DNA of 64,000 nt from an uncultured virus (IMG/VR IMGVR_UViG_3300030060_006061) (lineage: Duplodnaviria; Heunggongvirae; Uroviricota; Caudoviricetes): the IMG/VR virus record IMGVR_UViG_3300030060_006061, positions 1 to 64,000 of that record. One strand, written 5' to 3'. Position 1 is the stretch's first letter; every line of letters starts with the position of its first letter. Position numbers and translations under genes: made by a program. Positions 5,931 to 52,254 of this stretch are shown piece after piece. The notes beneath the pieces are model-generated. The model was not told the DNA's origin. It did no database searches and saw only the letters and a list, made by a program, of their open reading frames with translations.

Positions 5931-6107
5931 ATGATTGGTTTAGAAGATGCTAATACAACTTCACCACTCCTAGTGATCCTATGGTGTTTTTATCCCATAG
6001 GAATCCTAGTAGCGATAGAACTATTTTTAAAATCCCTCAATGACGACGATGACGACGATTTTGGAGGGGGTAAAGCAGTCCCAGTTTATTCACCATCAGG
6101 AGCTTAA
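5931..6107 (+). CDS. Small membrane protein with acidic tail
   Basis: 58 aa, TM segment then DDDDDDFGGG; directly follows hli5. Confidence 0.7.
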   Translation: MIGLEDANTTSPLLVILWCFYPIGILVAIELFLKSLNDDDDDDFGGGKAVPVYSPSGA

Positions 6108-6108
6108 C

Positions 6109-6183
6109 ATGTATCACATTTTATTCACAACAATAGTCACACTTTACATCGTATCAGGTGTAGGCAACATCGCATTCGCATGA
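6109..6183 (+). CDS. 24-aa hydrophobic microprotein
   Basis: MYHILFTTIVTLYIVSGVGNIAFA; AGGAG upstream; ATGA overlap with next ORF. Confidence 0.5.
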   Translation: MYHILFTTIVTLYIVSGVGNIAFA

Positions 6184-6275
6184 TTAAAATAGCTTACTCA
6201 CCATACTACTCACTTATTGAGTTCGGTTTTTTCGTTGTTGTGGGAACAGCAGCGGGTATGGCAGGTTTAATATGA
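6180..6275 (+). CDS. 31-aa hydrophobic microprotein
   Basis: MIKIAYSPYYSLIEFGFFVVVGTAAGMAGLI; ATGA overlaps at both ends. Confidence 0.6.
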   Translation: MIKIAYSPYYSLIEFGFFVVVGTAAGMAGLI

Positions 6276-6640
6276 ATAACTCACAATCTTATCACGACGT
6301 TATGGAAGCGTATAAGCGTCCACCATCAATCAGATTTATTCCTAGAATATTTGGTTGGTTAACAGTGTTTGTGCTGTTATTTGGTGTATCAAAAACAGCG
6401 TATGCTTATGAGGCAGAACCCGTGATTTGGGTGCAAGTTCCACAGTGGACAGATGATTGGGCAGTATGTGCAGTAGATATTCCAGATGCTGCATGTCATT
6501 GGTATGTTGCAAATGCAGACAATACATTTGGAGAGGGATTCGACTGGGAGACAGCTCCTTGGTTCGATGCAAACGGATTAAGCGATGTGGCACCCATCTC
6601 TAAACAAACTGTCGCACAAAAATTACAAGAGGTAGGATGA
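6272..6640 (+). CDS. Hypothetical protein (TM/signal plus Trp/Cys-rich domain)
   Basis: 122-aa coupled ORF. Confidence 0.7.
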   Translation: MNNSQSYHDVMEAYKRPPSIRFIPRIFGWLTVFVLLFGVSKTAYAYEAEPVIWVQVPQWTDDWAVCAVDIPDAACHWYVANADNTFGEGFDWETAPWFDANGLSDVAPISKQTVAQKLQEVG

Positions 6641-6741
6641 ATTATATTTCAATATTACAGATGTTTCTAATGATATTCTCAGGCACAGCGATACTAACAA
6701 CACTTTTCGTGGTCATGATGAGCACCATGATGGAAGACTAA
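6637..6741 (+). CDS. 34-aa hydrophobic microprotein
   Basis: MNYISILQMFLMIFSGTAILTTLFVVMMSTMMED; ATGA overlap. Confidence 0.5.
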   Translation: MNYISILQMFLMIFSGTAILTTLFVVMMSTMMED

Positions 6742-6763
6742 ATAAGACACATACACAAAAATT

Positions 6764-7009
6764 ATGTTACAGAAAATTGTAAATGGAATCGCTATTGCAA
6801 GTGGTGTTGTATCTCTCACCGTTGTTGGTCTTGGCGGTTACGTATTCATACGCAAGGATGCAATTATCGAAAACGTCAAAGGTAAAATAATGGAATCTGT
6901 TTTACCCGGTGGAATCGGTGGAGCAATAGGAGGAGCTGGACTATCATTACCAAGTCCTTCATCAGACGCACCAACGTCACCATCACCATCAATACCTTCT
7001 CCATTCTAG
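6764..7009 (+). CDS. Hypothetical membrane protein with Pro/Ser tail
   Basis: 81 aa; preceded by CTAAATA late-promoter variant. Confidence 0.7.
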   Translation: MLQKIVNGIAIASGVVSLTVVGLGGYVFIRKDAIIENVKGKIMESVLPGGIGGAIGGAGLSLPSPSSDAPTSPSPSIPSPF

Positions 7010-7055
7010 AAAAGGATTAATATACTAAATAATACCGCTAATGCGGTATTTTTTT

Positions 7056-7490
7056 ATGGCAGAAGAAAAAAAAGAAATTAAAACAGAGGAACCAAAGAAG
7101 AAAGGTTTCTTTGGTAATTTAAAAGAACATGCGGAAGACAAAGAAGAACAGTTAATGATTCTCTCTACTTTCGTGAGATTGGGAATATTGATTTGGTCAG
7201 GGGCTATCTTGACTTTGGCCTATGTTGAATTACCAGAAGCACTTAAAATTCCAAAACAAGATCTCGACCCGACATTCATAGCTTCAGTTTTCACAGGAGT
7301 TTTGGCCACTTTTGGGGTCACTACTTCTAAGAGAGGTTCACAAGGTGGTTCTAATGGTGGTGTAAGTAAAGGTGACATGGAGAAACTTATTGCAGCAGCA
7401 TCACAGACTGCACCTGCACAAACAATTCGTATTGAACAGGCACCAATGCAGATTGCAACTGCAGTTCCACCAAAGAAAGATAAAGAGTAA
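7056..7490 (+). CDS. Hypothetical two-TM protein
   Basis: Two hydrophobic segments; DPTFIASVFTGVLATFGV. Confidence 0.75.
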   Translation: MAEEKKEIKTEEPKKKGFFGNLKEHAEDKEEQLMILSTFVRLGILIWSGAILTLAYVELPEALKIPKQDLDPTFIASVFTGVLATFGVTTSKRGSQGGSNGGVSKGDMEKLIAAASQTAPAQTIRIEQAPMQIATAVPPKKDKE

Positions 7491-7727
7491 TTGGAATTCA
7501 CTGCTAGTAACGTCATTGAATCCCTTTCAGAGATCGCCCCTTACATAGAGGCTGACGGGGGATTCTTGCAATTTGTAGAAATAGAAGAGGGAACTAACTT
7601 TGTAAAGGTAAGACTTGGTGGTGCTTGTACAAGTTGTGCCATGAGTGCTATGACATTAAAACAAGGTATTGAGAAGAAATTATTTCAAGATTTTCCTGAC
7701 TGCAACGGAGTTATCCAAGTTCTATGA
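7491..7727 (+). CDS. NifU C-terminal (Nfu) Fe-S scaffold domain protein
   Basis: IAPYIEADGG...VRLGGACTSCAMSAMTLKQGIE; TTG start. Confidence 0.9.
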   Translation: MEFTASNVIESLSEIAPYIEADGGFLQFVEIEEGTNFVKVRLGGACTSCAMSAMTLKQGIEKKLFQDFPDCNGVIQVL

Positions 7728-7811
7728 CATAGTGTGGGATCCCACACATTACTGCGTATATATACCTATTCAGTTATAATAAATATTATTGTACTGGAGT
7801 TGAAAAGAATC

Positions 7812-7973
7812 ATGTCCCATTACACATTAGCTTGGCACGATCAACAAGATATCGAGCACCATATCTGTGAATATGCAGACGATGCATTTGAAGCAGCAGC
7901 TCACGCGAGAGAGGATGTTCCGTTTCTACAGGAACATCCTTTTTCTCTGTATGAAATACTCAAGGAGGATTAG
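7812..7973 (+). CDS. Hypothetical protein
   Basis: 53 aa, GGAG upstream, TATAAT/TAAATA elements upstream. Confidence 0.65.
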   Translation: MSHYTLAWHDQQDIEHHICEYADDAFEAAAHAREDVPFLQEHPFSLYEILKED

Positions 7974-39763: not shown

Positions 39764-42700
39764 ATGGGTCTTTCCAGATTAGAGAATTTTCTCAAAAATG
39801 TGCGAGGCAATATACTATATGTAAGTCCAAATGATTTGGATGCAACTGATAGTGTAGATAATAAAGGTAATTCTCTCACTCGTCCATTCAAGACAATCCA
39901 AAGAGCATTAGTCGAGGCAGCCAGATTTTCATATCAGCAAGGTTTAGATAATGACAGATTTGGTAACACAACTGTATTATTATACCCCGGTGAGCATATC
40001 GTAGATAATAGACCGGGATGGATACCAATTCCAGATGGTGTAAATGCAAAATTTAGAAAAAGAGACGGTTCAGAGTCACAAGATTTTCCTGCATGGGATT
40101 TGGACACAGTTTATGACCTCAATAACTCAAATAATGCATTATATAAGCTGAATAGTGTGCATGGTGGTGTAATTATGCCACGAGGAACCTCACTTGTAGG
40201 TTTAGATTTAAGAAAAACAAAGATAAGACCAAAGTATGTTCCAAATCCAACAAATGATAATATTGAGAGAACTGCTTTATTTCGTGTAACAGGTGCTTGT
40301 TATTTTTGGCAATTCACGATGTTTGATGCAGACCCAAATGGGGTTGCATATGTAGATTATACAGAAAATCTTTTTGTTCCTAATTTTTCACATCATAAAT
40401 TAACTTGTTTTGAGTACGCTGATGGTGTTAATAACGTAAACATCAATGACACTTTCAATACTTTAAGATTAGATCGAACAGATCTGCAGATGTATTATGA
40501 AAAAGTTGGTTTAGCATACGGAACTGCAACAGGTAGAGAAATACAACCAGATTTCCCATCATCATCAATTGATATACAACCAAAAATTGATGAATTTCGT
40601 ATTGTCGGATCAACTGGATCATCTGTTGGTATTTCAAGTATAAAGGCCGGAGATGGATCTGCGACAAGTGATACAATCACAGTTACAACTACAGAGGCCG
40701 TTTCTGGATTAGATGTTGATACACCATTTGTATTAAGTGGCATTACCGCTGCTGGATATAATGGTAAATTTGTTGTAAGTGAAAAATTGAGCAGCACTCA
40801 ATTCAAATATGAGGTGCAAAATGCTCCTGTAACGCCACTTCCACCAGTCACTGGTGCAACTATTACCTTAAACACTGATACTGTGACATCAGCGTCACCA
40901 TACATGTTTAACTTATCGTTGAGATCTGTTTTCGGTATGAATGGACTCCACGCCGATGGTCAAAAGGCAACTGGATTCAAATCCATGGTGGTCGCTCAGT
41001 TTACTGGTATTGGTCTTCAGAAAGATGATAATGCATTCTTATTATATAATTCTGCAACTGGTGTTTATGATGATGCGACTGTTCCCGGAAATGAAAATTT
41101 AAGCACAAACTCAAGAGCAATATATAAACCTGCATATGCAAACACACATATAAAATGTAGTAATAACTCTGTTATACAGGCTGTCTCTATCTTTGCGATT
41201 GGATTTACTGATCATTTTGTTTCAGAGACTGGTGGTGACATGTCAATCACCAACTCAAACTCAAACTTTGGTGCGAGAGCGTTAATATCGAAAGGTTTTA
41301 GACCAGATGCTTTTTCACAAGATGATAAGGGATATATTTCACACATTATACCTCCAAAAGAGGTGCCAATCACTGAAAATGCAATAGAATTTGATGCGGT
41401 TGATTTGGGAGTGACCGTAGGTGTGAGTTCTGACGCACATTTATATCTCTTCAATCAAACAAACGTTGATGCTCCACCTGAAAATGTATTAGAAGGATTT
41501 AGATTTGGTGCGAGAGATCTTGATACTTTAAACGTCCTTGTTCCTAATTCATCAGGAACACCAACTGAATTTGCATCAAGAATTGTGATGCCAAATGGAA
41601 ATGGTAATAATAACGTACAATATAGTTCAGAGAAAGTATTTCGAGTTGACAGAAGTTCTGCTGGAATTAATAGCATAACAAGTAATGTTATCACCCTTAC
41701 ACAGGCCCATTCTTTTGAAAATGCAGAATCTGTAAGAATTTTGAGTGATAATGGACGTATTCCTGATGGATTAGATCCAAATACGGTTTATTTTGTCATA
41801 ACAAGTGCGAATGCGACAGCTGGATTGACTACTAATAGAAATATTAAACTTGCAAAGACAGAGACTGATGCAAAAAATGCCTCTGCACTTACAATTAATA
41901 ACTTGGGTGGTTCACTTAAAATTGTCAGTCGTGTATCTGATAAAAATTCTGGAGATATTGGACACCCTATTCAATTTAGCACAACTGAAAATCAGTGGTA
42001 CGTAAACGTCTCTACTGCTGCAACAGATAATAAAATATTTGATGATGTTGTCGTTGGGTTAGGATCAACCGCTTTAGGTAGTGCAACACCAAGATCATTC
42101 ATCAAGAGAAAATCAGACACCAGAGCTGCAAACGATACAATATACAGATTTAGATATGTAATACCTGCCTCTAGTGGTGGTGCGGTAGCAAGACCACCAA
42201 CAGATGGATTCATACTACAAGAATCGAACACTTCAATTGGTTCAACCAACACTGAGGTTCAAACATACTTTGGTTCTGGAACATTAAACCATGAGAATGA
42301 GCAGAGAAACTTTAGATTTATTGCAAATGCACATTGGTCATCTAGTTCTAGTGTTGCAAGTGTATTAACTGAATTACCACATGATCTATCAGTTAATTCG
42401 AGAGTTGAATTAATTAATATTCAAAGTTCTACAAACACAGCTGGAACTGCGAACACTGGTTTCAATGGAACTTTCCATGTGACAGGTATAACAAGTGCAA
42501 GGGAGTTTACAGTTGGAATATCAACAGATCCCGGAACATTCACGAGTGATACTCTTACTAGAACCACCTCTCTTCCTCACTTCAAGAGAAAGAATTTCGA
42601 GACAACTTACTATATTCAAGATATTGAGGAAGTTCAATCATATAAACAAGGTGAGCAAGATGGTGTTTACTACATAACACCTGTCAATGCTAATAATAGA

Positions 42701-45700
42701 CCATCTGTAGATCCTTTTACAGATAATAAGTTCTCACAGAGCATTATCAATCTATTCCCTCAAGTAGATAGAGACACACCATTATCTGATCCAGATCCAG
42801 CTGTATCTTTTGCAAGGACAATTCCTATTGGTGAAGTTATAGTTGATGATGTCAAAAAGAGTATTACAAAAGAGACAATAGATAAATTTATTCGTGATGT
42901 TGATGTCGGTGTTGGAGTGACAGATGTTGTTACTGCTGTTGGAGGAACATCACATAGATTTAACACTAAGATTGATCATGGTTTAAATAGAATCACTCAA
43001 GTTAGTATTGCAAATAGTGGAACACAGTACGGATCTGGATCTGATGCAGACTTTTATAATGCAAAATTAGTAAGTATTGGAGCATCGGTAACTGGTATTA
43101 ACGCAACTGCAAAAGTAGGTGTTATTAATGGGCAGATTAATAGTGTTGAGATTATGGATGGTGGTAGTGCCTATGGTATAGGTAACACCATGAATGTTGT
43201 CGGTATTGCCACAACTGGTGATACAGGACATACATCCGCTGTTGTTCAAGTGACAAAAATTTATGATAATATTGGTGATGTTGTAAGATTAACAGGTGTC
43301 TCGTCAGAAACTTATAATCAATATAACGATCTATATCGAATCACGGAGATTCAAGTTGGTGGAGGAAAGAGTTTCACTGCAATAAGTGATAAAACCGTTA
43401 TTGGTGTCACAACTGCCGGTATAGGAACGAGTCCTCTTGATAAGGCAGCTGTTTACATAACAGGTGGTAGTTTAGGTATCACAAACATAACTTACGATCC
43501 TACAGTTGGTATAGCGACATTTACATCATCCAGTAATCATGGATTAAAAATTAATAACAAAGTTAGAGTTAATACTGGAGTCTCAACATTTAGGGGTAGT
43601 TTTGTCGTAACTAAGAACGTAAGTTCAACTCAATTTGCAGCCAGAGTCGGTACCTCACTAACCACCGCGACAAGTGTTTCCACTGGATCTTCATCCTTCG
43701 CATTTGAAGAAGGATTCTCATCAAGAGACGGAATACCAACTGTTGAGAATGAAAGTTTAAATGGAAGAATGGTTTCTCGTTATGCTGGAATCACCACCAC
43801 TTTATCATCCAATATTGCAGATGCAGTAACAACAAGCGTTAGTTTAACCAATGTTGGAGAGATTGGGGTGAGGATAGGTGATTATCTAATGATTGATGAT
43901 GAAATAGTTCGTGTTAAATCATCGTTATCAAATCCTGCAACAAACCCACTAACTGTTTTCCGTGCTGTTCTTGGAACTAGAGCAACAACTCATAGTTCTG
44001 GTGCAGTGGTTCGTCGAATCAAACCATATCCGATTGAACTTAGAAGACACTCTATCAATAGAGCGTCAGGTCATACGTTTGAATATGTTGGATACGGGCC
44101 CGGTAACTACTCAACTGCTTTACCTCAAAGACAAGATCGTGACATCACAGATCGTGAAGANNNNNNNNNNATATTATCACAAACATTTAAGCAAGAAGGT
44201 GGTGTTAACTACTTCACTGGTATGAATGATCGTGGTATCGCTTTCTCTGGAAACAAAAAAATAAGCACAATCACTGGTAAGGAAGAAATATTTGATTCAC
44301 CGATCAGAAGTGTAACAGGTGAAGATATTTCAAATAGAACTGATATTAATCTTATTAATGCAACAGAGGGAACATTTACACAATCAATTCGTGTTGATGG
44401 TGGAGATGAGGGCAAGTCAATATCTGAATTCACTGGCCCAGTTGTGTTTACTAATAAAGTAACATCGACTGCATCTCGTGGTTTTGAAGTCAATAATTTA
44501 TTCATTCAAGGTGATTCTACAGTTGCAAGAAAATATACAGTTGGAATAGCAACTCCAACTGATGCAGGAACACCCGGTGATGTTGTATTTGATGAAACAC
44601 CCACACAAGGCGATTATGCGGCTTGGGTTTACACGAATGACAAGGATTGGAGAAGATTTGGCCCAATCAGTCTTGAAAAAGATCAAAACAAATATGTATT
44701 TGATAAAGTAGGTATTGGCACAACCACTTTAAGTGGGTCAATGTTTAGAATAGGTGCTGGTTCTACCTTATTTGCAGTTGATGCTGGTATCGTTACAGCC
44801 GTCGGTGGTCTTCGTGTTGGCACTGCAGCAACCATATATCGTAATGGAAATGCGACATTCTCAGGAATTGTTACGGCAACTGCATTTGTTGGTGATGGTG
44901 CTAACCTATCCAATTTAAACGTCACAGCAGCAGGTTGGGGACAAGTTGAAGCAACGTTTGCTGGAGCTGGAAGCACAGGAATCTATGCATTTGGTAGTGG
45001 TGACGTTGACAATGCAAGAGTTGGTATCGGAACATCTGTCGCTCATTTCCCACTCGATCTTGGTAAAGATGATAAAGTCGGCACTGGATTGACAAATATG
45101 ATTGTCCGCAATGAATCTAAATTTATTGAGACAGTTACCGCGCATTCCGGAGTTAATATAACGGGCATACTGAGTGCAACCAATTATAAATTAAATGGAT
45201 CTGCTGGTATTATAAGTGCGGGTATTGTAACCACCTCAACTCTATTAGTTGGTGCAAGTGGAACTGCGATTCAAGTCACATCCGGATCACTAATTGGATT
45301 TGGAACTGCATCGCCGAGATCAAAAGTAGATATTGATGGTAGATTGAGGGTTAAGTCATTACATGAAAACGTTGAAGAACTTGACATCTCATCTGGTAAT
45401 GTAAACGTTGATTTATCAAAAGGACAATCATTCAACTTAAATATTGATGAGGCAGTTACAGGATTCACTGTTATAAATCCACCGGCAGAGGCAACAGCGT
45501 TTACGATCAAGATCACTCAAGGATCTACCGCCTTCTCAGTTGGTATAGACACGTTTACAAATAATGCGACTGGTGCAGGTGCGACAGTTTACTGGCCCGG
45601 TGGAAACGTTCCTGTTGTAACACAAGTCGCTGGAAAGACTGACATCTTCTCATTCAAGAGTTTTGATTCATGCATCGCACTCTTTGGTATAGTGGGTGGT

Positions 45701-45718
45701 CAGAACTTCTCTAACTAG
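39764..45718 (+). CDS. Very large tail fibre/structural protein (spans N gap)
   Basis: MGLSRL...GNSLTRPFKTIQRAL N-terminus, VGIGTT fibre repeats, DEIVRV..RAVLGT motif. Confidence 0.85.
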   Translation: MGLSRLENFLKNVRGNILYVSPNDLDATDSVDNKGNSLTRPFKTIQRALVEAARFSYQQGLDNDRFGNTTVLLYPGEHIVDNRPGWIPIPDGVNAKFRKRDGSESQDFPAWDLDTVYDLNNSNNALYKLNSVHGGVIMPRGTSLVGLDLRKTKIRPKYVPNPTNDNIERTALFRVTGACYFWQFTMFDADPNGVAYVDYTENLFVPNFSHHKLTCFEYADGVNNVNINDTFNTLRLDRTDLQMYYEKVGLAYGTATGREIQPDFPSSSIDIQPKIDEFRIVGSTGSSVGISSIKAGDGSATSDTITVTTTEAVSGLDVDTPFVLSGITAAGYNGKFVVSEKLSSTQFKYEVQNAPVTPLPPVTGATITLNTDTVTSASPYMFNLSLRSVFGMNGLHADGQKATGFKSMVVAQFTGIGLQKDDNAFLLYNSATGVYDDATVPGNENLSTNSRAIYKPAYANTHIKCSNNSVIQAVSIFAIGFTDHFVSETGGDMSITNSNSNFGARALISKGFRPDAFSQDDKGYISHIIPPKEVPITENAIEFDAVDLGVTVGVSSDAHLYLFNQTNVDAPPENVLEGFRFGARDLDTLNVLVPNSSGTPTEFASRIVMPNGNGNNNVQYSSEKVFRVDRSSAGINSITSNVITLTQAHSFENAESVRILSDNGRIPDGLDPNTVYFVITSANATAGLTTNRNIKLAKTETDAKNASALTINNLGGSLKIVSRVSDKNSGDIGHPIQFSTTENQWYVNVSTAATDNKIFDDVVVGLGSTALGSATPRSFIKRKSDTRAANDTIYRFRYVIPASSGGAVARPPTDGFILQESNTSIGSTNTEVQTYFGSGTLNHENEQRNFRFIANAHWSSSSSVASVLTELPHDLSVNSRVELINIQSSTNTAGTANTGFNGTFHVTGITSAREFTVGISTDPGTFTSDTLTRTTSLPHFKRKNFETTYYIQDIEEVQSYKQGEQDGVYYITPVNANNRPSVDPFTDNKFSQSIINLFPQVDRDTPLSDPDPAVSFARTIPIGEVIVDDVKKSITKETIDKFIRDVDVGVGVTDVVTAVGGTSHRFNTKIDHGLNRITQVSIANSGTQYGSGSDADFYNAKLVSIGASVTGINATAKVGVINGQINSVEIMDGGSAYGIGNTMNVVGIATTGDTGHTSAVVQVTKIYDNIGDVVRLTGVSSETYNQYNDLYRITEIQVGGGKSFTAISDKTVIGVTTAGIGTSPLDKAAVYITGGSLGITNITYDPTVGIATFTSSSNHGLKINNKVRVNTGVSTFRGSFVVTKNVSSTQFAARVGTSLTTATSVSTGSSSFAFEEGFSSRDGIPTVENESLNGRMVSRYAGITTTLSSNIADAVTTSVSLTNVGEIGVRIGDYLMIDDEIVRVKSSLSNPATNPLTVFRAVLGTRATTHSSGAVVRRIKPYPIELRRHSINRASGHTFEYVGYGPGNYSTALPQRQDRDITDREXXXXILSQTFKQEGGVNYFTGMNDRGIAFSGNKKISTITGKEEIFDSPIRSVTGEDISNRTDINLINATEGTFTQSIRVDGGDEGKSISEFTGPVVFTNKVTSTASRGFEVNNLFIQGDSTVARKYTVGIATPTDAGTPGDVVFDETPTQGDYAAWVYTNDKDWRRFGPISLEKDQNKYVFDKVGIGTTTLSGSMFRIGAGSTLFAVDAGIVTAVGGLRVGTAATIYRNGNATFSGIVTATAFVGDGANLSNLNVTAAGWGQVEATFAGAGSTGIYAFGSGDVDNARVGIGTSVAHFPLDLGKDDKVGTGLTNMIVRNESKFIETVTAHSGVNITGILSATNYKLNGSAGIISAGIVTTSTLLVGASGTAIQVTSGSLIGFGTASPRSKVDIDGRLRVKSLHENVEELDISSGNVNVDLSKGQSFNLNIDEAVTGFTVINPPAEATAFTIKITQGSTAFSVGIDTFTNNATGAGATVYWPGGNVPVVTQVAGKTDIFSFKSFDSCIALFGIVGGQNFSN
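44161..44170. other. Assembly gap
   Basis: 10 N. Confidence 1.
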
Positions 45719-45726
45719 GAGGACAT

Positions 45727-47640
45727 ATGAGTAATAAAATATGGGATGATAAACCCACCGATCTGACATTAAACGGCCCTAGATTATCAATAACTTCTGA
45801 CACAACTCGTAATATTTCCCTAATAGCACCTAATGGTCAAACTGGTGGTGGTGTCACGGATCAAACTTCAGTTACTTTTTCAGTGACTGGAGTTTCTACT
45901 TTTCCTGATGGAACGAGTGCTGATGGTGGTATATCATATGAGTGGTTTGAAATCAACGATGGTGCGATTGGAGTATCTACTAGGTTTACAGGAGCAGGGA
46001 CAAGTTCACTTACATTAACTCATGCCCTTAGTCCAGAGGATAATGGAAAACAATATTTTAGCAGATTAACATTTACACCAGACAATGTTTCTTCGGGAGG
46101 AACATCCGGCATATCTTTGATTCCAACTCTTGATTCTTCACCCATAGGTGTTGACATTACACCAGAATTATTCATATCGGCAGGTATAACAACAGCGACC
46201 GTATCCGTAGATCAAGAAGCATCATTTAGTTGTTTAGGTGGCATAAATCGTGATAAAGTTTCATCATATGATACTGGACAGGAAAGTAGTATTGCATATC
46301 AATGGTATTTTGATGGAAACACACTTTCTGATGGAACACTTAAAGTTGAAACACCTGCAACCACAGTTACAAAAACCTTTGGTATTGGAGATCATACTTT
46401 AATCATACCTGATGATGCACTTAACGTGACAGTGCGTGTTGTTGGTGGTGCAGGTGGATCAGGTGGAAATGACGCAGGATCAAATGGTGGAAGTGGTGGA
46501 CAAGGTAGAGTTGGTAAATTCTCACTACCAAATGGTGGTAGAAAATTAACTATAAATGTTGGTGGCCGTGGTAACAATGGTGGTGGAGGAGGAAATAGAT
46601 CTGGAGGTTCTGGAGGTTCATCACCAGTTAGTAGAGGTGGAAATGGTGGTAACTCTGGTGATAGAGGATCATCAGGATCTGGTGGTGGAGGTGCAGGAGG
46701 AGTATTTGTATTTGATAGCGTAAGTAATGGTTACATTATCGCTACTGGAGGTGGCGGTGGAGCCGCAGGAGGATCTCTTAACAGAGGTAATGCACCTAAT
46801 GGGGGAAATGCTGGTGATTGGCAATCTGTAAGTTCAATTTCAGGAATAACAAACGGAAGTAATGGAAATAAACCCGGCGGTGACGGCGGCGGCGGCGGCG
46901 GTGGCGGTGGAGGCTACCGTGGTGGATCTGGTGGTGCTGCTGGATCCGATGGTGGTGGTGGTGGAGGAGGCCCATGCTTTAGTGCTGATACTCGCGTGTT
47001 AATGTGGCCTGCTCCAACTGTATCTTTCGGTGATTTAGTTGAGAGACCAATATCTGAAGTAAAGGTTGGTGATTATGTAATAAACAAAGACCGTACATCA
47101 AAGAACAAAGTCACATTCATTGAGGAGCATAATCCAAGTTCAAAAGATCCAGATCTTTATTCACCAAATGAAAATATACCTCCATTTGCAACAACTAATC
47201 ATCCATTATTTGTTGATGGTGAGTGGGTTGCAGTTGATGTTGACCTATATCCATGGTTAGGTAAACAAAGACCATTAAGAGATGCCAGTATAGAGGAGAC
47301 TGGAAATAGAAAACTCTATAATCTTTGGTTATCGGGTGATGGAACTTATAATGTGAATGGTTTTGGAACACACTCCATAATGTTTGATGGTGGATTTATG
47401 AAAAATTGTTTTGCTCAAGGATTGTTAACTCATGATGAAGTGATGAGTTTAATGAGGAATTATACATATGATCAAACTGATCTCGTGACAGGGGCATTCT
47501 TACTCAATAAATTATTAGGGAAGATAAATTTAAAAATGTTAAATAAATTTATGATTTATTGTTTGAGAGGAAATGACACATCAAAAAGAAAGAAGATTGT
47601 TCATAAGGTAATGAAATACTTACAAAGAGGTTACAACTAA
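45727..47640 (+). CDS. Ig-like plus glycine-rich tail protein with C-terminal Hint domain
   Basis: ISYEWFE and IAYQWYF Ig-like motifs, Gly-rich block, then CFSADTRV...TTNHP...YNL...THS. Confidence 0.85.
   Translation: MSNKIWDDKPTDLTLNGPRLSITSDTTRNISLIAPNGQTGGGVTDQTSVTFSVTGVSTFPDGTSADGGISYEWFEINDGAIGVSTRFTGAGTSSLTLTHALSPEDNGKQYFSRLTFTPDNVSSGGTSGISLIPTLDSSPIGVDITPELFISAGITTATVSVDQEASFSCLGGINRDKVSSYDTGQESSIAYQWYFDGNTLSDGTLKVETPATTVTKTFGIGDHTLIIPDDALNVTVRVVGGAGGSGGNDAGSNGGSGGQGRVGKFSLPNGGRKLTINVGGRGNNGGGGGNRSGGSGGSSPVSRGGNGGNSGDRGSSGSGGGGAGGVFVFDSVSNGYIIATGGGGGAAGGSLNRGNAPNGGNAGDWQSVSSISGITNGSNGNKPGGDGGGGGGGGGGYRGGSGGAAGSDGGGGGGGPCFSADTRVLMWPAPTVSFGDLVERPISEVKVGDYVINKDRTSKNKVTFIEEHNPSSKDPDLYSPNENIPPFATTNHPLFVDGEWVAVDVDLYPWLGKQRPLRDASIEETGNRKLYNLWLSGDGTYNVNGFGTHSIMFDGGFMKNCFAQGLLTHDEVMSLMRNYTYDQTDLVTGAFLLNKLLGKINLKMLNKFMIYCLRGNDTSKRKKIVHKVMKYLQRGYN
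46975..47376 (+). other. Hint (Hedgehog/intein) domain, about 134 aa, no endonuclease
   Basis: Block A CFSADTRV, ISEVKVGDYV, block B TTNHP, block F/G LYNL...TYNVNG..THS. Confidence 0.85.
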
Positions 47641-48932
47641 TGTCAAATGCAGGAAGAGGTGGAGGAGGTGAGAGTGCCTATAATACTAATATAGTCACAT
47701 TAACAGGTCAAAACTCTGCGAACGGAATAGATCCCACGGTCGAAGTAACTTATACGTCAGCAGAGGAAGGTGCTGGTAATGAGGTTATTATAACAAACAT
47801 AACTGTTTCAGGTGCGACAACTCCAAATTTAAAATTATCAGCTGACGGACTTACAACAAATGAAATAAAGTGTAAGATAAGTCAACCTAATTCTGTGTTA
47901 AACAAAGCTGATGCAGATGGAAGCACCGTGTTATCTGCAGGAACTATTGATAGTGGATCAAATATAGGTTTAGTAACGAAAACGGTTGATTTTGAGGTCA
48001 TAAGTGCCACAAACAAATCCATATCTTTTGTTAATTCGGAAATTGTCGATGATAAAGACTCAAGTGTGCATTCATCATCCTCAACAAATTTATTTCTTAA
48101 TGACATTATTTTTGAAGGTCAACAGACAGATCCTGCATCATCAGGAAGGACATTTATCATATATCCACCTGATGAAAATATAAGTGTTAAAATTTCAATG
48201 GCTGGATCCCGTGGTTTTGATTTTAATGGTAACAAAGGTGGTAATGGTGGAGTCACTATTTTTACTTATACTCTTCAAAAAAATACAGAGTATGTTTTTA
48301 AATTAGGATATACTGTTTCTCCTCCAACATCTTTAGGTAGAGGTGGATCGGGAGCTTTCTTTTATGAAAAGGGTAGGTTATTAGTAGCATGCGGTGGTGG
48401 TGGAGCGTCTGGATGGTACGGTGGAAACGGAGGCACTGGTGGAGGTGCAGGAGTTGCTGGTGGATCGGGTAGTGGATCATCAGGTGGTTCAGGTGGTGAA
48501 TCTGTTTCAGCAGGACAATTAACTTCAGAGGGTGTTGTTCCAACATCAGGTTCCGCAGGAAAAGCTGAATCTTGCACAACTGGTGATTATTGGTTAGGGC
48601 AAGGTGTTGATGCGTGTAGTGATGTTGGAAATGTTAAATTTAGAACATTTGATGGAACAGAAGTTTCAAGTTCTGCCACAATACAAAGAGGATATAAAGC
48701 AGATGGAGGCCCAGAAAATGGATTTAGATTTAATGGAGAGAGTAGTTTTAATGAAGTAAATGGCACATATGTTGGTGGTGGTGGAGCAGGAGCATTTGGT
48801 GGTGGAGCAGCTGCGTCAACAAACTCTGGTGGTGGAGGAGGGAGTGGATATACAAACGGAAGTGTTAATATAATACGAACTTCTTCTGAGAATGAATTGC
48901 AAACTGCCTTCGCACAGATTGAATTACTATAA
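47640..48932 (+). CDS. Glycine-rich tail protein (continuation of previous gene)
   Basis: Starts MSNAGRGGGGESAY; contains a second complete Gly-rich domain. Confidence 0.8.
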   Translation: MSNAGRGGGGESAYNTNIVTLTGQNSANGIDPTVEVTYTSAEEGAGNEVIITNITVSGATTPNLKLSADGLTTNEIKCKISQPNSVLNKADADGSTVLSAGTIDSGSNIGLVTKTVDFEVISATNKSISFVNSEIVDDKDSSVHSSSSTNLFLNDIIFEGQQTDPASSGRTFIIYPPDENISVKISMAGSRGFDFNGNKGGNGGVTIFTYTLQKNTEYVFKLGYTVSPPTSLGRGGSGAFFYEKGRLLVACGGGGASGWYGGNGGTGGGAGVAGGSGSGSSGGSGGESVSAGQLTSEGVVPTSGSAGKAESCTTGDYWLGQGVDACSDVGNVKFRTFDGTEVSSSATIQRGYKADGGPENGFRFNGESSFNEVNGTYVGGGGAGAFGGGAAASTNSGGGGGSGYTNGSVNIIRTSSENELQTAFAQIELL

Positions 48933-48969: not shown

Positions 48970-51900
48970 ATGGCCATTAATAAGAATTTTGTAATTAAGA
49001 ATGGTGTTGAGGTAAATACTAATCTTCTTGTCGGTGATTCAACTTTAAGTAAAGTCGGTATTGCGACTACAGTTCCGGGATATACCCTTCATATTGGTGT
49101 CGGAGCAGGGGATCGTGGTGGAATTGGAGCGACTGACTTAACAGTCACTGGTGTTGCAACTATTGGAACACAAAATAGCACATCAGGTGCTTTGAATGTA
49201 GGTGGAATATCAACTTTCAGTGGGGACATATTTGTTGGTTCTGGTGCGACTATACAAGCAAATGGTAATGCGGCCTTTGCTGGTATAGGAACTTTTGGTG
49301 GTGATTTAAATGTAGGTGGAAACTTATCTGCTGGTGATTTCACAATTGATGAGATAACAGCGAGAAATATAAACGTAACTGGATTTGCCACATTCTCTGA
49401 GATAGGTGGTAATCTCATTCCCGATACTGATGACACTCATAGTATCGGTGCTGCCACAAGTGAATGGAAAGATTTATTCATAGATGGAACTGCAAAGATT
49501 GACACTCTTACTGTTGATGAAAGTGCTACCGTTACTGTAGATGTAACAGTCGGATCTGGAGTCACACTTCAAAGACATGGTGGAGTTTCAATTGCTGGTA
49601 TCACAACAGTTGGTGGTAATCTACTTGCTGGTGGAGATATTTTACCAGATGAGGATGGATCAAGAGATCTTGGATCAAGTTCAAAAGAGTTCCAAGACTT
49701 ATTCATAGATGGAACAGCAAATATTGACTCCTTATCTGCTGACACAGCAATAATTGGTGACTTGACCGATAACAGAGTTGTCATCGTTGGTTCTGGTGGA
49801 GAACTTGAAGATAGTGGTAATTTAACGTTTGATGGTACTAAATTAGCAACAACTGCCTTTAACGTAAGCACTGGAGCAACCATAGCCAACAACGGTAATG
49901 CAGCATTCGCTGGTATAGTCACTGCAAATGGTGGTATTCGTATTGGTACTGTAGTAACGGTTGATTCTAACACTGGTAATGCAACCTTTGCCGGTGTCAC
50001 AACAACAGGTGAGAATCTTGGTGGATTTAAGAGATTAGTTGGAGCAGCGAGTTCAACTGTTGTATCAATCGCAGTTACAGTCGCAGCCAAGACAGCAGAT
50101 CACAGATACTTTGGACAAGGATCAGGAAATGGATATTGGTTAGATGGAGTTCAATCACCATTCCTTACATTAGTTCCCGGAAAATTATATTACTTTGATC
50201 AGTCTCATAGCACAAACAGTGGTCATCCACTTCGTTTCTATCTTGAACAGGATAAGGCAAATGCATATACAACAGAGATAACAACTGGAGGATCACCCGG
50301 TAGTTCAGGTGCATATACACAAATCGGAATCGGAACTGCATCCAATGAGAACAATCATCCAGCAGTCCTTCATTATCAGTGTTCATCTCATGCTTTGATG
50401 GGTAATGCGGTTGCAACTCAATCAAATGCAGTTAATTTGCCAGATTCAGTAGTCACAACGGTTCGTGGTAATTTATTACCGGGCACTGATAGTTCATATG
50501 ACATTGGAGCTAGTGGAACAAGATTTACTAACATCTATGGTGATACTTTACATGGTGATGGTTCAAACTTAACTAATTTACCTACTCAAGTATCGATTGC
50601 AAACAATGCAGACAACCGAGTAATCACAGGTGGTAGTGGTGTCAACTTAAATGGTGAAGCAAACCTCACATTTGATGGATCAACACTTGGAATCACTGGA
50701 AGTATTGATCTAAGTGCAGATATTGATGTTGATGGAACTGCAAACCTTGATACTGTAGATGTTGACGGAACCGCAAACTTTGCTGATGATGTAACCCTTG
50801 TTGCTGCTGGTAGTAGCACAATATTATTTGATGCATCTGCATTCGATTTAACATTTCAAGATAATATTAGAGCAAAGTTCGGAACAGGAAAAGATTTAGC
50901 CATATATCATGATGGCAGCAATTCTTTCATCGATGATACTGGAACTGGGGATTTAAATATTTCTGGTAGTATCGTAAGATTGCAGGATAGTAATCGACTT
51001 ACTTTGGCGAGAGGTGTAGAGAGTGGTGCGTTTGAGCTCTATCATAATAATTTAAATAGACTTGAGACCACAGCTGACGGAGTTGAAGTTGGTGTTTCAT
51101 CCATTCACGTAAATGGAAACGCTGCATTCCCCGGAATCACTACATTAGGAAAACCCGGTGCTGGAAGTGAGGTTATAATAAACAACAGATTGACCGTCAA
51201 TAGTGGTGCAAATATATCTGGTATTGCGACACTAGCGCAAGCGTATATTGCTAAACTAGCACAGAGTAACGGAACATCTGGTAGTGTTAATGAAGTTCCA
51301 GTTGCAAACGGTTCAGGTGGTTGGAACTGGGCACCTGTAAACACCGCCGGTGCGAGTGACATTCAGGGTATTACTGTTCAGGAAGAAGGTTCAAACGTTG
51401 GTACTGCAGGTAGTATTAACACGATAAACTTCACTGGCACCGACATCACTGCGTCTGCATCAGGACAAACTGCAACGATAAACGTCAGTTCAACAATTCA
51501 GGGTATAAGCACAGCAAATCAGTCATATTTACATGACATCACTCAAACTGGTGTTACAACAATCACATCAGATCAAGAAGCAGCTATAAATGTTGGAACT
51601 TCAGCAACAATATACAAACTTGGTAACATCAGGACTGTTGGTGTTATTACTGCTCGTGGTGGACTTGTTATCAGTGATTCTACAGATAGAAGTTCTAATG
51701 GTGGATTAATAGTTGGAACTGCTGGAACGATACAATCAAATGGTGCAGCTGCATTTGCTGGAATCGTAACTGCTGGTGGTGGTTTCAATATTGGTATTCA
51801 ATCTGCTGGTATTGTTATTGCGAAGAACGTTGGTATCAATACACTTAACTTTGTTGGATCTGGTAACTCAATCACTTACTTCGCTGCAACAAACACTCTT

Positions 51901-52254
51901 GATGTTAGTATCGCAGGGTCAAGTGGAGGTGGAGGAGGAGGTGTCTCGGAAACAGAGACAGCAGTTTCATCTACAAGTGCAACAAGCACTGGTAGCTTTG
52001 CGAAGGCAAGTTTCCGATCTGCATCTATCCTAGCACAGATAACGCAAGGATCTGCATTCCAAGTTGGTCGATACTTGTTAATACATGATGGCACGACAGT
52101 TACAACGATTGAAGAATCGGCAGTCGCAACCGGATCAATGCTTGGAACATTTGAAGGTGTGATAAATGGTTCAAATGTTGAGTTCAGGGTGACGATGAGT
52201 AGCTCTTCTTCTGCAACAGTTACAACTAAGATTGATACAATCTCGATACCATAG
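48970..52254 (+). CDS. Tail fibre protein
   Basis: MAINKNFVIKNG start, GNAAFAGI and DLFIDGTA repeats, HPLRF...YQCSSHALMG insert. Confidence 0.85.
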   Translation: MAINKNFVIKNGVEVNTNLLVGDSTLSKVGIATTVPGYTLHIGVGAGDRGGIGATDLTVTGVATIGTQNSTSGALNVGGISTFSGDIFVGSGATIQANGNAAFAGIGTFGGDLNVGGNLSAGDFTIDEITARNINVTGFATFSEIGGNLIPDTDDTHSIGAATSEWKDLFIDGTAKIDTLTVDESATVTVDVTVGSGVTLQRHGGVSIAGITTVGGNLLAGGDILPDEDGSRDLGSSSKEFQDLFIDGTANIDSLSADTAIIGDLTDNRVVIVGSGGELEDSGNLTFDGTKLATTAFNVSTGATIANNGNAAFAGIVTANGGIRIGTVVTVDSNTGNATFAGVTTTGENLGGFKRLVGAASSTVVSIAVTVAAKTADHRYFGQGSGNGYWLDGVQSPFLTLVPGKLYYFDQSHSTNSGHPLRFYLEQDKANAYTTEITTGGSPGSSGAYTQIGIGTASNENNHPAVLHYQCSSHALMGNAVATQSNAVNLPDSVVTTVRGNLLPGTDSSYDIGASGTRFTNIYGDTLHGDGSNLTNLPTQVSIANNADNRVITGGSGVNLNGEANLTFDGSTLGITGSIDLSADIDVDGTANLDTVDVDGTANFADDVTLVAAGSSTILFDASAFDLTFQDNIRAKFGTGKDLAIYHDGSNSFIDDTGTGDLNISGSIVRLQDSNRLTLARGVESGAFELYHNNLNRLETTADGVEVGVSSIHVNGNAAFPGITTLGKPGAGSEVIINNRLTVNSGANISGIATLAQAYIAKLAQSNGTSGSVNEVPVANGSGGWNWAPVNTAGASDIQGITVQEEGSNVGTAGSINTINFTGTDITASASGQTATINVSSTIQGISTANQSYLHDITQTGVTTITSDQEAAINVGTSATIYKLGNIRTVGVITARGGLVISDSTDRSSNGGLIVGTAGTIQSNGAAAFAGIVTAGGGFNIGIQSAGIVIAKNVGINTLNFVGSGNSITYFAATNTLDVSIAGSSGGGGGGVSETETAVSSTSATSTGSFAKASFRSASILAQITQGSAFQVGRYLLIHDGTTVTTIEESAVATGSMLGTFEGVINGSNVEFRVTMSSSSSATVTTKIDTISIP

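Follow-up and report, generated by a model that had tools for sequence, protein, structure and literature searches.

The 64,000-nucleotide stretch of viral DNA analysed here (positions 1 to 64,000 of IMG/VR record IMGVR_UViG_3300030060_006061; hereafter the window) comes from a 74.6-kb viral fragment. The source virus is a marine cyanophage, and its nearest relatives among named phages are two cyanomyoviruses of the family Kyanoviridae, S-SM2 and SynMITS9220M01. Among a series of large fibre-type genes on its + strand lie two overlapping open reading frames (ORFs), ORF1 (45727..47640, 637 aa) and ORF2 (47640..48932, 430 aa), which appear to encode the first and the second half of one ancestral protein, with a Hint domain and a helical tail at the end of the first. 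This Hint-plus-tail module is present once in the record.

All window features given below are on the + strand. ORF1 opens with an immunoglobulin-like (Ig-like) part, followed by a truncated glycine-rich domain (residues 221-415, 46387..46971) that matches the Pfam family Gly_rich_2 below its cut-off and holds the interface residues (208-406) of the co-folded model described below. A Gly7-Pro linker (residues 409-416, 46951..46974) forms the 5′ part of what we call the cassette; in relatives this position is occupied by poly-Pro, poly-Arg or poly-Gly. The Hint domain (residues 417-550, 46975..47376) starts at Cys417 (codon TGC at 46975-46977), at a boundary that reads GGGGGGYRGGSGGAAGSDGGGGGGGP|CFSADTRV. 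It contains the block B motif T489-x-x-H492 and D538, and ends T548-H549-S550, without Asn. The remainder of ORF1 is an 87-aa tail of five helices (residues 551-637, 47377..47637), which was modelled as a single unit with the Hint and matched no known fold. In ORF2, residues 2-44 (47643..47771) are predicted to complete the glycine-rich domain of ORF1 and are disordered when ORF2 is folded alone, and a second glycine-rich domain (about residues 130-430, 48027..48929) gives a confident model of the ALK/LTK TG type. The ORF2 N-terminus, GRGGGGESAYNTNIVTL, is similar to the end of its C-terminal domain, GGGGGSGYTNGSVNII.

The two frames meet at a TAATG overlap (47638-47642; AAC TAA TG, with one A common to both), preceded by a Shine-Dalgarno-like AAGAGG at 47625-47630, which is part of the final codons of ORF1 and is separated from the ATG by 9 nt (47625..47642 for the combined signal). 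On re-check, the coordinates and sequence features that an earlier note on this DNA had given for ORF1, ORF2, Cys417, the THS end of the Hint, the 87-residue tail and the overlap were exact. In each of the 12 loci printed, a GAGG- or GGAG-type motif stands 8-12 nt 5′ of the ORF2 start codon, within the final codons of the preceding ORF. The cassette would thus bring or maintain the restart signal. An ORF1-ORF2 fusion made by frameshifting or read-through was rejected, since the fused product could not splice without Asn and each ORF2 has its own Shine-Dalgarno motif.

The 11-mer GGTGGAGGAGG stands on both sides of the cassette (window 46960-46970 and 47658-47668) and also at 46582, 48831 and 51928. 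These five matches, against 0.01 expected, all fall in Gly-run coding sequence. The 11-mer was therefore rejected as a target-site duplication and is at most a possible microhomology for insertion of the cassette.

Hint domain and helical tail

Pfam detects no Hint family in ORF1 residues 417-637, even at E ≤ 10; among 20 other family members, 13 have weak block-A matches, mostly under the gathering score. Relatives of the module were collected by exhaustive HMMER searching with ORF1 residues 417-637, and 36 of them make up the family alignment A1. With this alignment, AF2 modelled residues 417-637 at a pLDDT (predicted local distance difference test) of 95.1 and a pTM (predicted template-modelling score) of 0.90, as a beta domain (module positions 1-133) followed by five helices (140-220). 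Foldseek returned ten matches in the PDB at E ≤ 1e-3, every one a Hint protein; the best is BIL2 of Tetrahymena (6tmm, E 1.7e-6; BIL, bacterial intein-like), and the Prp8 and gp41-1 inteins, Vint and the Clostridium thermocellum BIL are also among them, with Hedgehog (1at0) at 9e-3. VIA-align, which is independent of Foldseek, found 26 chains at Z ≥ 8 among 48,161, including BIL2 (Z 13.9, root-mean-square deviation 2.5, 125 residues aligned), gp41-1 (Z 12.6), Vint (11.9), 1at0 (Z 11.8, root-mean-square deviation 2.5, 111 aligned) and BIL (11.7). At the level of sequence, the A1 profile matched PI-SceI (1.9e-5), BIL2 (2.7e-5) and Sonic hedgehog (Shh, 0.012), and also Vint, and a protein atlas query returned viral hypothetical proteins and Vint clusters only. 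By its modelled structure, ORF1 417-550 has a genuine Hint fold despite the silence of Pfam.

The residues on which the N-S acyl shift of a Hint depends are conserved. Cys417, T489, H492 and D538 are invariant across 12 close relatives, and the block B Thr and His (T73 and H76 of the module) are invariant across the 36 aligned members. T548 and H549 are likewise invariant in the 12 close relatives and S550 is nearly so, followed by Ile; in the wider family the Hint ends GT[HT]S and then Ile, Gly or Leu, and the 36 aligned sequences all lack HN at this point. With the N-terminal residues conserved and the terminal Asn lacking, a thioester would be possible, and a C-terminal cut or splice by the Asn route would not. 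A canonical intein was rejected on this basis: the C-terminal Asn, Gln or Asp and the Ser, Thr or Cys of a C-extein are absent, and THS-I, 87 residues and a stop stand in their place. The form of that idea with both exteins in one ORF is ruled out by the split ORFs in all ten Hint loci with ORF2 visible. A split intein does not fit either, as the whole Hint (417-550) is in ORF1, and ORF2 begins with domain sequence, its residues 2-44 docking in the glycine-rich domain of the model.

The predicted helices of the tail occupy module positions 140-147, 153-166, 168-182, 187-197 and 204-220. Searched alone with VIA-align, the tail matched helical parts of IpaH/SlrP/SspH1-type chains, ParB-N and Zuo1 (Z 3.8-5.0), which were rejected as below the chance level for helical bundles. 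The overall layout, a Hint without terminal Asn plus an extension of about 70-90 aa at the protein C-terminus, was confirmed to be of the Hog type. The tail is conserved to the same degree as the Hint and was modelled together with it as one unit, which suggests a role beyond being discarded. The final helix is amphipathic with a basic character, and a hydrophobic stretch followed by a basic one closes many members (e.g. ...GKIACIINNK and ...GRVAWFFKNK), an end that, read by eye, could possibly bind membranes. Candidate roles for the tail are an aid to folding or assembly, a membrane tether and a Hedgehog-like recruitment of the nucleophile.

Contiguous relatives and the split loop

The Gly_rich_2 family (PF21722) matches ORF1 221-415 over profile positions 4-202 of 226 (E 1.7e-4; 22.1 bits, short of the cut-off of 24.3). 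Since the match stops at position 202, ORF1 would lack about the last 24 positions of the profile. ORF2 has no Pfam match; matches to PF12810 or PF21722 occur in relatives. The ORF2 C-terminal domain was modelled with confidence and has ALK/LTK glycine-rich (TG) matches at E 5e-6 to 2e-4, with a TM (template-modelling) score of only 0.28-0.46.

At the corresponding position, phage S-SM2 has a single ORF of 845 aa, gp031. The profile phrog_24848 (799 positions) is matched by ORF1 and ORF2 in succession, ORF1 3-419 aligning with positions 3-399 (E 5e-17) and ORF2 5-418 with positions 389-786 (E 5.6e-39). When longer proteins related to ORF2 were sought, 193 of 754-2150 aa were returned (E ≤ 1e-10). 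The 120 that were listed and the S-SM2 protein, 121 in all, were compared with ORF1 and ORF2 by BLAST. The N-terminal part of ORF1 and ORF2 follow one another in a single chain in 106 of these 121, and none of the 121 matches the Hint-plus-tail profile. Relatives without the Hint that encode both halves as one ORF, which the earlier note had suggested looking for, are thus common, S-SM2 gp031 among them. From these comparisons of sequence, ORF1 and ORF2 are to be read as the halves of one ancestral protein.

In the contiguous relatives the split point falls after ...YRGGxGGxAGxD and before GGGGGxSAY. Ten of the 106 carry an in-frame insert of at least 50 residues exactly at this point, and these inserts mark the split site as a loop, in the first glycine-rich domain, that tolerates insertions. 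With different sequences inserted there in different relatives, it resembles a hypervariable site that can accept cargo. The inserts themselves include a Cys-rich block of about 75 aa (in relatives P0156-P0158) and beta-rich blocks of about 100 aa (P0155, P0177 and P0178).

Predicted association of the two halves

ORF1 200-637 and ORF2 1-60 were co-folded in three runs with the alignments A3 and A2. The pair reached an interface score (ipSAE) of 0.86, against 0.00 for the best control; of 157 solved complexes 116 attain this level, as do 2 of 215 mismatched pairs, a comparison that is rough because our own alignments were used. The runs share at least 88% of their contacts, and the pLDDT of the partner is at least 75. 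In the model, ORF2 2-44 contacts ORF1 208-406, most tightly through ORF2 32-38 against ORF1 214-218 and 234-239. All of the confident ORF2 contacts listed are in ORF1 208-406 and none are on the Hint or the tail; since residues left unnamed are only uncertain, this speaks neither for nor against contacts there. When ORF2 was modelled alone, its residues 1-49 had pLDDT values below 50.

These results bear out two proposals of the earlier note. That an Asn-less Hint interrupts a single glycine-rich domain is upheld by the truncated Gly_rich_2 match and the Hint fold beginning at Cys417, and that ORF2 carries the missing end of this domain agrees with the succession of the halves along phrog_24848 and with the co-folding of residues 2-44.

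Split loci and neighbouring genes

Ten loci with the Hint have ORF2 in view, namely the window and the IMG/VR contigs L003, L004, L005, L006, L010, L011, L013, L015 and L091; an eleventh Hint contig, L014, ends 5′ of ORF2 and was left out of this count. Residue 2 of ORF2 is Ala in seven of the ten, Ser in two and Gly in one. Six relatives without the Hint are broken at the same loop (the cultured phage SynMITS9220M01 and contigs L096 and L098-L101), an arrangement that, like variation at residue 2, the earlier note had named as counting against trans-ligation; their existence also implies that covalent joining is dispensable. Over all 16 split loci, residue 2 of ORF2 is small (Ser, Ala or Gly).

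In the loci that are split without a Hint, ORF1 is extended by about 30 consecutive Pro, by 6-8 Arg (a run that L096 lacks) and by an unrelated tail of about 170 aa (IICKNLATLGYFKDKEMNDADQRF) with a hydrophobic C-terminal stretch. These ORF1 genes are at 5992-7842 in SynMITS9220M01 (locus L002; SynMITS9220M01_028), 2247-4079 in L096, 2293-4143 in L098, 2218-4071 in L100 and 2203-4095 in L101. Compared with the A1 hidden Markov model, the 170-aa tail shows no homology to the Hint and its tail (E ≥ 0.07), and it has no significant Pfam match, the best being DUF6787 (E 0.006, below the cut-off). ORF2 in these loci begins MAKAGGGGGG, MAKATGGGGGG or MGRAAGG.

Some split loci have a further gene between the halves, a conserved acidic ORF of 110-133 aa (115-133 in Hint loci) with the motif NC[IV]x[YL]NAIxKxxxPYD. 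It occurs in four of the ten Hint loci and in all six split loci without the Hint (L006 4681-5082; L010, L011 and L013 4178-4525; L002 7842-8183; L096 4083-4415; L098 4140-4499; L100 4068-4418), and is absent from the window. This ORF has no significant Pfam or PHROG match, and its product might be an assembly helper.

A gene for a 2-oxoglutarate- and Fe(II)-dependent (2OG-Fe(II)) oxygenase (PF13640, E ~1e-14) is found directly 3′ of ORF2 in five relatives whose ORF1 has a Pro-rich linker (L015 5453-6025, L009 5829-6404, L010 5881-6675, and also L011 and L013). The window, L003, L004, L091 and the split loci without the Hint do not have this gene. A connection between the oxygenase and the poly-Pro linkers, for example through prolyl hydroxylation, is only a thought.

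In the window, ORF1 and ORF2 are flanked by other genes of fibre type. A 1984-aa ORF (39764-45718), whose counterpart in S-SM2 is annotated 'fiber', lies 5′ of ORF1, and a fibre-like ORF of 1094 aa (48970-52254) lies 3′ of ORF2. The 1984-aa ORF contains a run of ten Ns at window positions 44161-44170, where its translation reads XXXX.

Distribution of the Hint-plus-tail module

The HMMER search for the Hint and tail returned 190 representatives of 50%-identity clusters at E ≤ 1e-3, 142 at E ≤ 1e-10 and 67 at E ≤ 1e-30. Among the 150 of the 190 representatives that were listed, the module forms the very C-terminal end of proteins that are about 200-2900 aa long, the exceptions being a few fragments and a few tandem Hints. 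It is preceded by poly-Gly, by poly-Pro and then Gly/Arg, or by an Ala/Val/Ile-rich stretch, followed by the Cys-Phe with which the Hint starts. The passenger parts are varied and include DUF4815/phrog_358, Ig-like, cadherin-like, leucine-rich repeat (LRR), PA14, laminin-G and subtilase domains; in P0054 the passenger is a complete Gly_rich_2 domain. Immediately before the terminal Hint and tail, six members (P0012, P0145, P0030, P0034, P0049 and P0074) have several tandem Hint copies with a canonical VHNK end, and P0012 and P0145 have 4-5 Hom_end_hint stretches.

When viral contigs were scanned, 106 candidate stretches emerged, of which 81 were confirmed; 80 loci were retained. A downstream GGGG-SAY partner follows the module, directly or after a small ORF, at eight of these 80, all on contigs of the cyanomyovirus group. 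At the other viral loci unrelated genes follow, often after a gap of 20-30 nt. Across 185,579 prokaryote species, represented by one genome each, we found three loci, all in metagenome-assembled bins; this count is a lower bound from a single-pattern scan. A tblastn search with the Hint and tail against 50,697 phage GenBank records gave no match at E ≤ 0.01, hence no cultured phage of that set with the module.

The module and its flanks differ in their similarity between phages. Compared with L003 (4282-4998), the window is 50% identical in the module and 76-78% identical in the flanks; with L004 (4001-4657), the module (window 46975-47637) is 81% identical and the flanks are 60-69% identical. 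This mosaic, taken from pairwise comparisons only, suggests exchange of the cassette between phages. The ratio of non-synonymous to synonymous substitution rates (dN/dS) is 0.14-0.48 over both halves and the module (0.14-0.32 for the module), indicating purifying selection, with dS near saturation. Judging from these comparisons, the Hint and tail seem to constitute a large, almost wholly viral and apparently undescribed family of putative C-terminal self-processing caps that are swapped between genes. The literature covered, which excludes subscription journals, contained nothing on a phage cap made of a Hint and a helical tail or on an adhesin split by a Hint; a review of jumbo phages in it refers to classical inteins only.

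Interpretation of the locus

In its ancestral form, which most relatives make as a single chain, this adhesin-like virion protein is glycine-rich (ALK/LTK-type) and has two domains. We consider it probable that in the window an insertion-tolerant surface loop of its first glycine-rich domain has been split by a swappable, self-cleaving cassette, and that the halves reassemble non-covalently. The cassette would consist of the Gly/Pro linker, the Asn-less Hint, the five-helix tail, the Shine-Dalgarno motif and the stop/start overlap. ORF1 would be translated as the N-terminal half fused with the Hint and tail, and the Hint, as its conserved Cys1, TxxH and Asp suggest, would convert the Pro416-Cys417 bond into a thioester. 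Resolution of the thioester, most simply by water, would then free the N-terminal half from the Hint and tail. ORF2 would be made separately by coupled re-initiation, and about its first 44 residues are predicted to enter the glycine-rich domain of ORF1 as the missing strands, rebuilding it non-covalently. We infer that this non-covalent assembly is the functional end state. Of the alternatives that the earlier note had offered to ligation, a module that removes itself fits best, and the attachment of a small molecule is kept as a rival of low probability.

Several points weigh against this interpretation. ORF1 has Pro at position -1, as several relatives do, and Pro at this position slows N-terminal cleavage in some inteins. 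The co-fold result is expected for two halves of one domain and, as a model, is not proof that two chains bind in the cell: ALK/LTK glycine-rich domains have been solved as single chains, so the result shows likeness to a contiguous domain. The equal conservation of the tail and the Hint suggests, by analogy with the sterol-recognition region of Hedgehog, that the tail does more than get discarded. The dN/dS values are also rough, given that dS is near saturation.

In a Hog-like transfer of an adduct, the tail would recruit a nucleophile other than protein (for instance an amine, or the hydroxyl of a lipid or sugar) and the Hint would pass the C-terminus of the N-terminal half to it, as Hedgehog does with cholesterol. 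This we regard as unlikely. A Hint with a C-terminal region of about 70-90 aa is also the arrangement of Hog domains (PMC2362128). The tail is conserved and forms a single modelled unit with the Hint, and by eye the hydrophobic-then-basic last helix of many members resembles membrane-binding amphipathic ends. However, the tail is similar to no solved fold, among structures compared that included no solved Hedgehog sterol-recognition region (SRR), and no candidate adduct is evident. To our knowledge there is no precedent for a lipidated tail-fibre protein. Direct ligation of the halves, as the earlier note proposed for the N-terminal Ser of ORF2, is improbable. Ser is not maintained there among the Hint loci, where Ala predominates, so that form of the proposal is not supported, and ORF2 offers no conserved side-chain nucleophile at residue 2. 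In the remaining form, the free N-terminal amine of docked ORF2, its Met removed, would attack the thioester at the end of the flexible Gly7-Pro linker to give one chain with a slightly longer loop. Methionine aminopeptidase removes Met before a small residue 2, with which the small residue at all split loci is compatible, but such residues are common at this position in any protein and are found equally in the six split loci without the Hint. The ends to be joined are 3-6 residues apart in contiguous relatives, so docking would bring the amine near the thioester, and the loop accepts inserts of at least 100 aa. Moreover, BIL2, the best structural match, resolves its thioester with a protein amine (PMC8616854). 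Against this, the extra ORF stands between the halves in four of the ten Hint loci, the linkers of relatives reach about 35 Pro/Arg and would keep the Hint away from the domain, the split relatives without the Hint do without joining, and the partner is absent at 72 of the 80 viral module loci (one contig ends before a partner could be seen). The broader notion that the Hint drives a natural 'expressed-protein ligation' through a free alpha-amine, and that the viral caps are a Hog-like family handing fibre C-termini to chosen nucleophiles and not to water, seems to us similarly improbable.

We think it very unlikely that the Hint does not cleave at all, in which case the virion protein would keep the Hint and tail permanently or an inserted intein would be decaying at this locus. 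The Pro at -1 speaks for a non-cleaving Hint. However, Cys1, TxxH and Asp are invariant in the 12 close relatives, the dN/dS of the module is low, and both halves are intact in the ten Hint loci. A decaying canonical intein was rejected because the module has neither a homing endonuclease nor a C-terminal splice junction. The split of an insertion-tolerant loop by a self-cleaving cassette, with non-covalent reassembly of the halves, remains our preferred interpretation.

Hint domains are known as inteins, as Hedgehog processing domains and as BIL domains, and a viral family of fibre or adhesin caps is new to the literature searched. What is unusual here is the place of the cap, within a folded domain, and its effect, the division of a protein of receptor-binding type between two genes that both look fully functional. 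The locus is therefore a natural test bed for domain complementation versus Hint-mediated ligation, and if the chemistry is confirmed it could be a source of new self-cleaving or ligating tags. It also suggests a way in which cyanophages may reshuffle fibre tips, through an insertion-tolerant loop, exchange of the cassette and alternative inserts at a single site.

Comparison with known systems

Phage 'genes in pieces', such as nrdA of Aeromonas phage Aeh1, which is split by mobE, and the split gp43 polymerases, resemble ORF1 and ORF2 in that a gene that is essential or structural, and contiguous in relatives, is now a pair of adjacent ORFs whose products reassemble non-covalently (as is predicted here). 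In those systems the insert is a homing endonuclease gene, whereas the insert in ORF1 is translated as a continuation of the upstream half and encodes a putative self-cleaving Hint. The intramolecular chaperones of the Peptidase_S74 type are C-terminal modules of fibres and spikes that remove themselves after assembly, by means of a Ser-Lys dyad. They offer a functional analogy to a self-removing cap only, being unrelated in fold and chemistry, and ORF1 and ORF2 have no Pfam match to Peptidase_S74. As for the passenger, adhesins of the gp38 type (PMC3157838, PMC12032242) and the ALK/LTK domain are, like the protein studied here, glycine-run scaffolds with variable loops, the likeness to gp38 being one of description.

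The closest systems for the Hint itself are BIL2 of the Tetrahymena BUBL1 locus (6tmm/6y75) and the C. thermocellum BIL (2lwy), which are Hints of cleavage or conjugation, not scarless splicers, and in this resemble the Hint of ORF1 in its putative role. BIL2 hands its N-extein to a protein amine (PMC8616854). It differs in keeping its C-terminal Asn (an N143A mutant is named in the title of the entry) and in lying between two ubiquitin-like domains in one chain. The Hint of ORF1 ends in Ser and is followed by a five-helix tail, with the downstream half on a separate polypeptide, and its sequence identity to BIL2 is about 19%.

Hedgehog and other Hog proteins have in common with ORF1 a Hint that starts Cys-Phe after a Gly-rich junction, lacks the terminal Asn and is followed by an extension of similar length at the protein C-terminus. 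The Hog architecture is described as a Hint plus a sterol- or adduct-recognition region (SRR/ARR) (PMC2362128). The likeness of the viral module to Hog rests on architecture and the Hint fold, and the hosts of these viruses are bacteria, which generally lack sterols. Among the systems compared, the module is most Hog-like in its architecture and most BIL-like in its fold.

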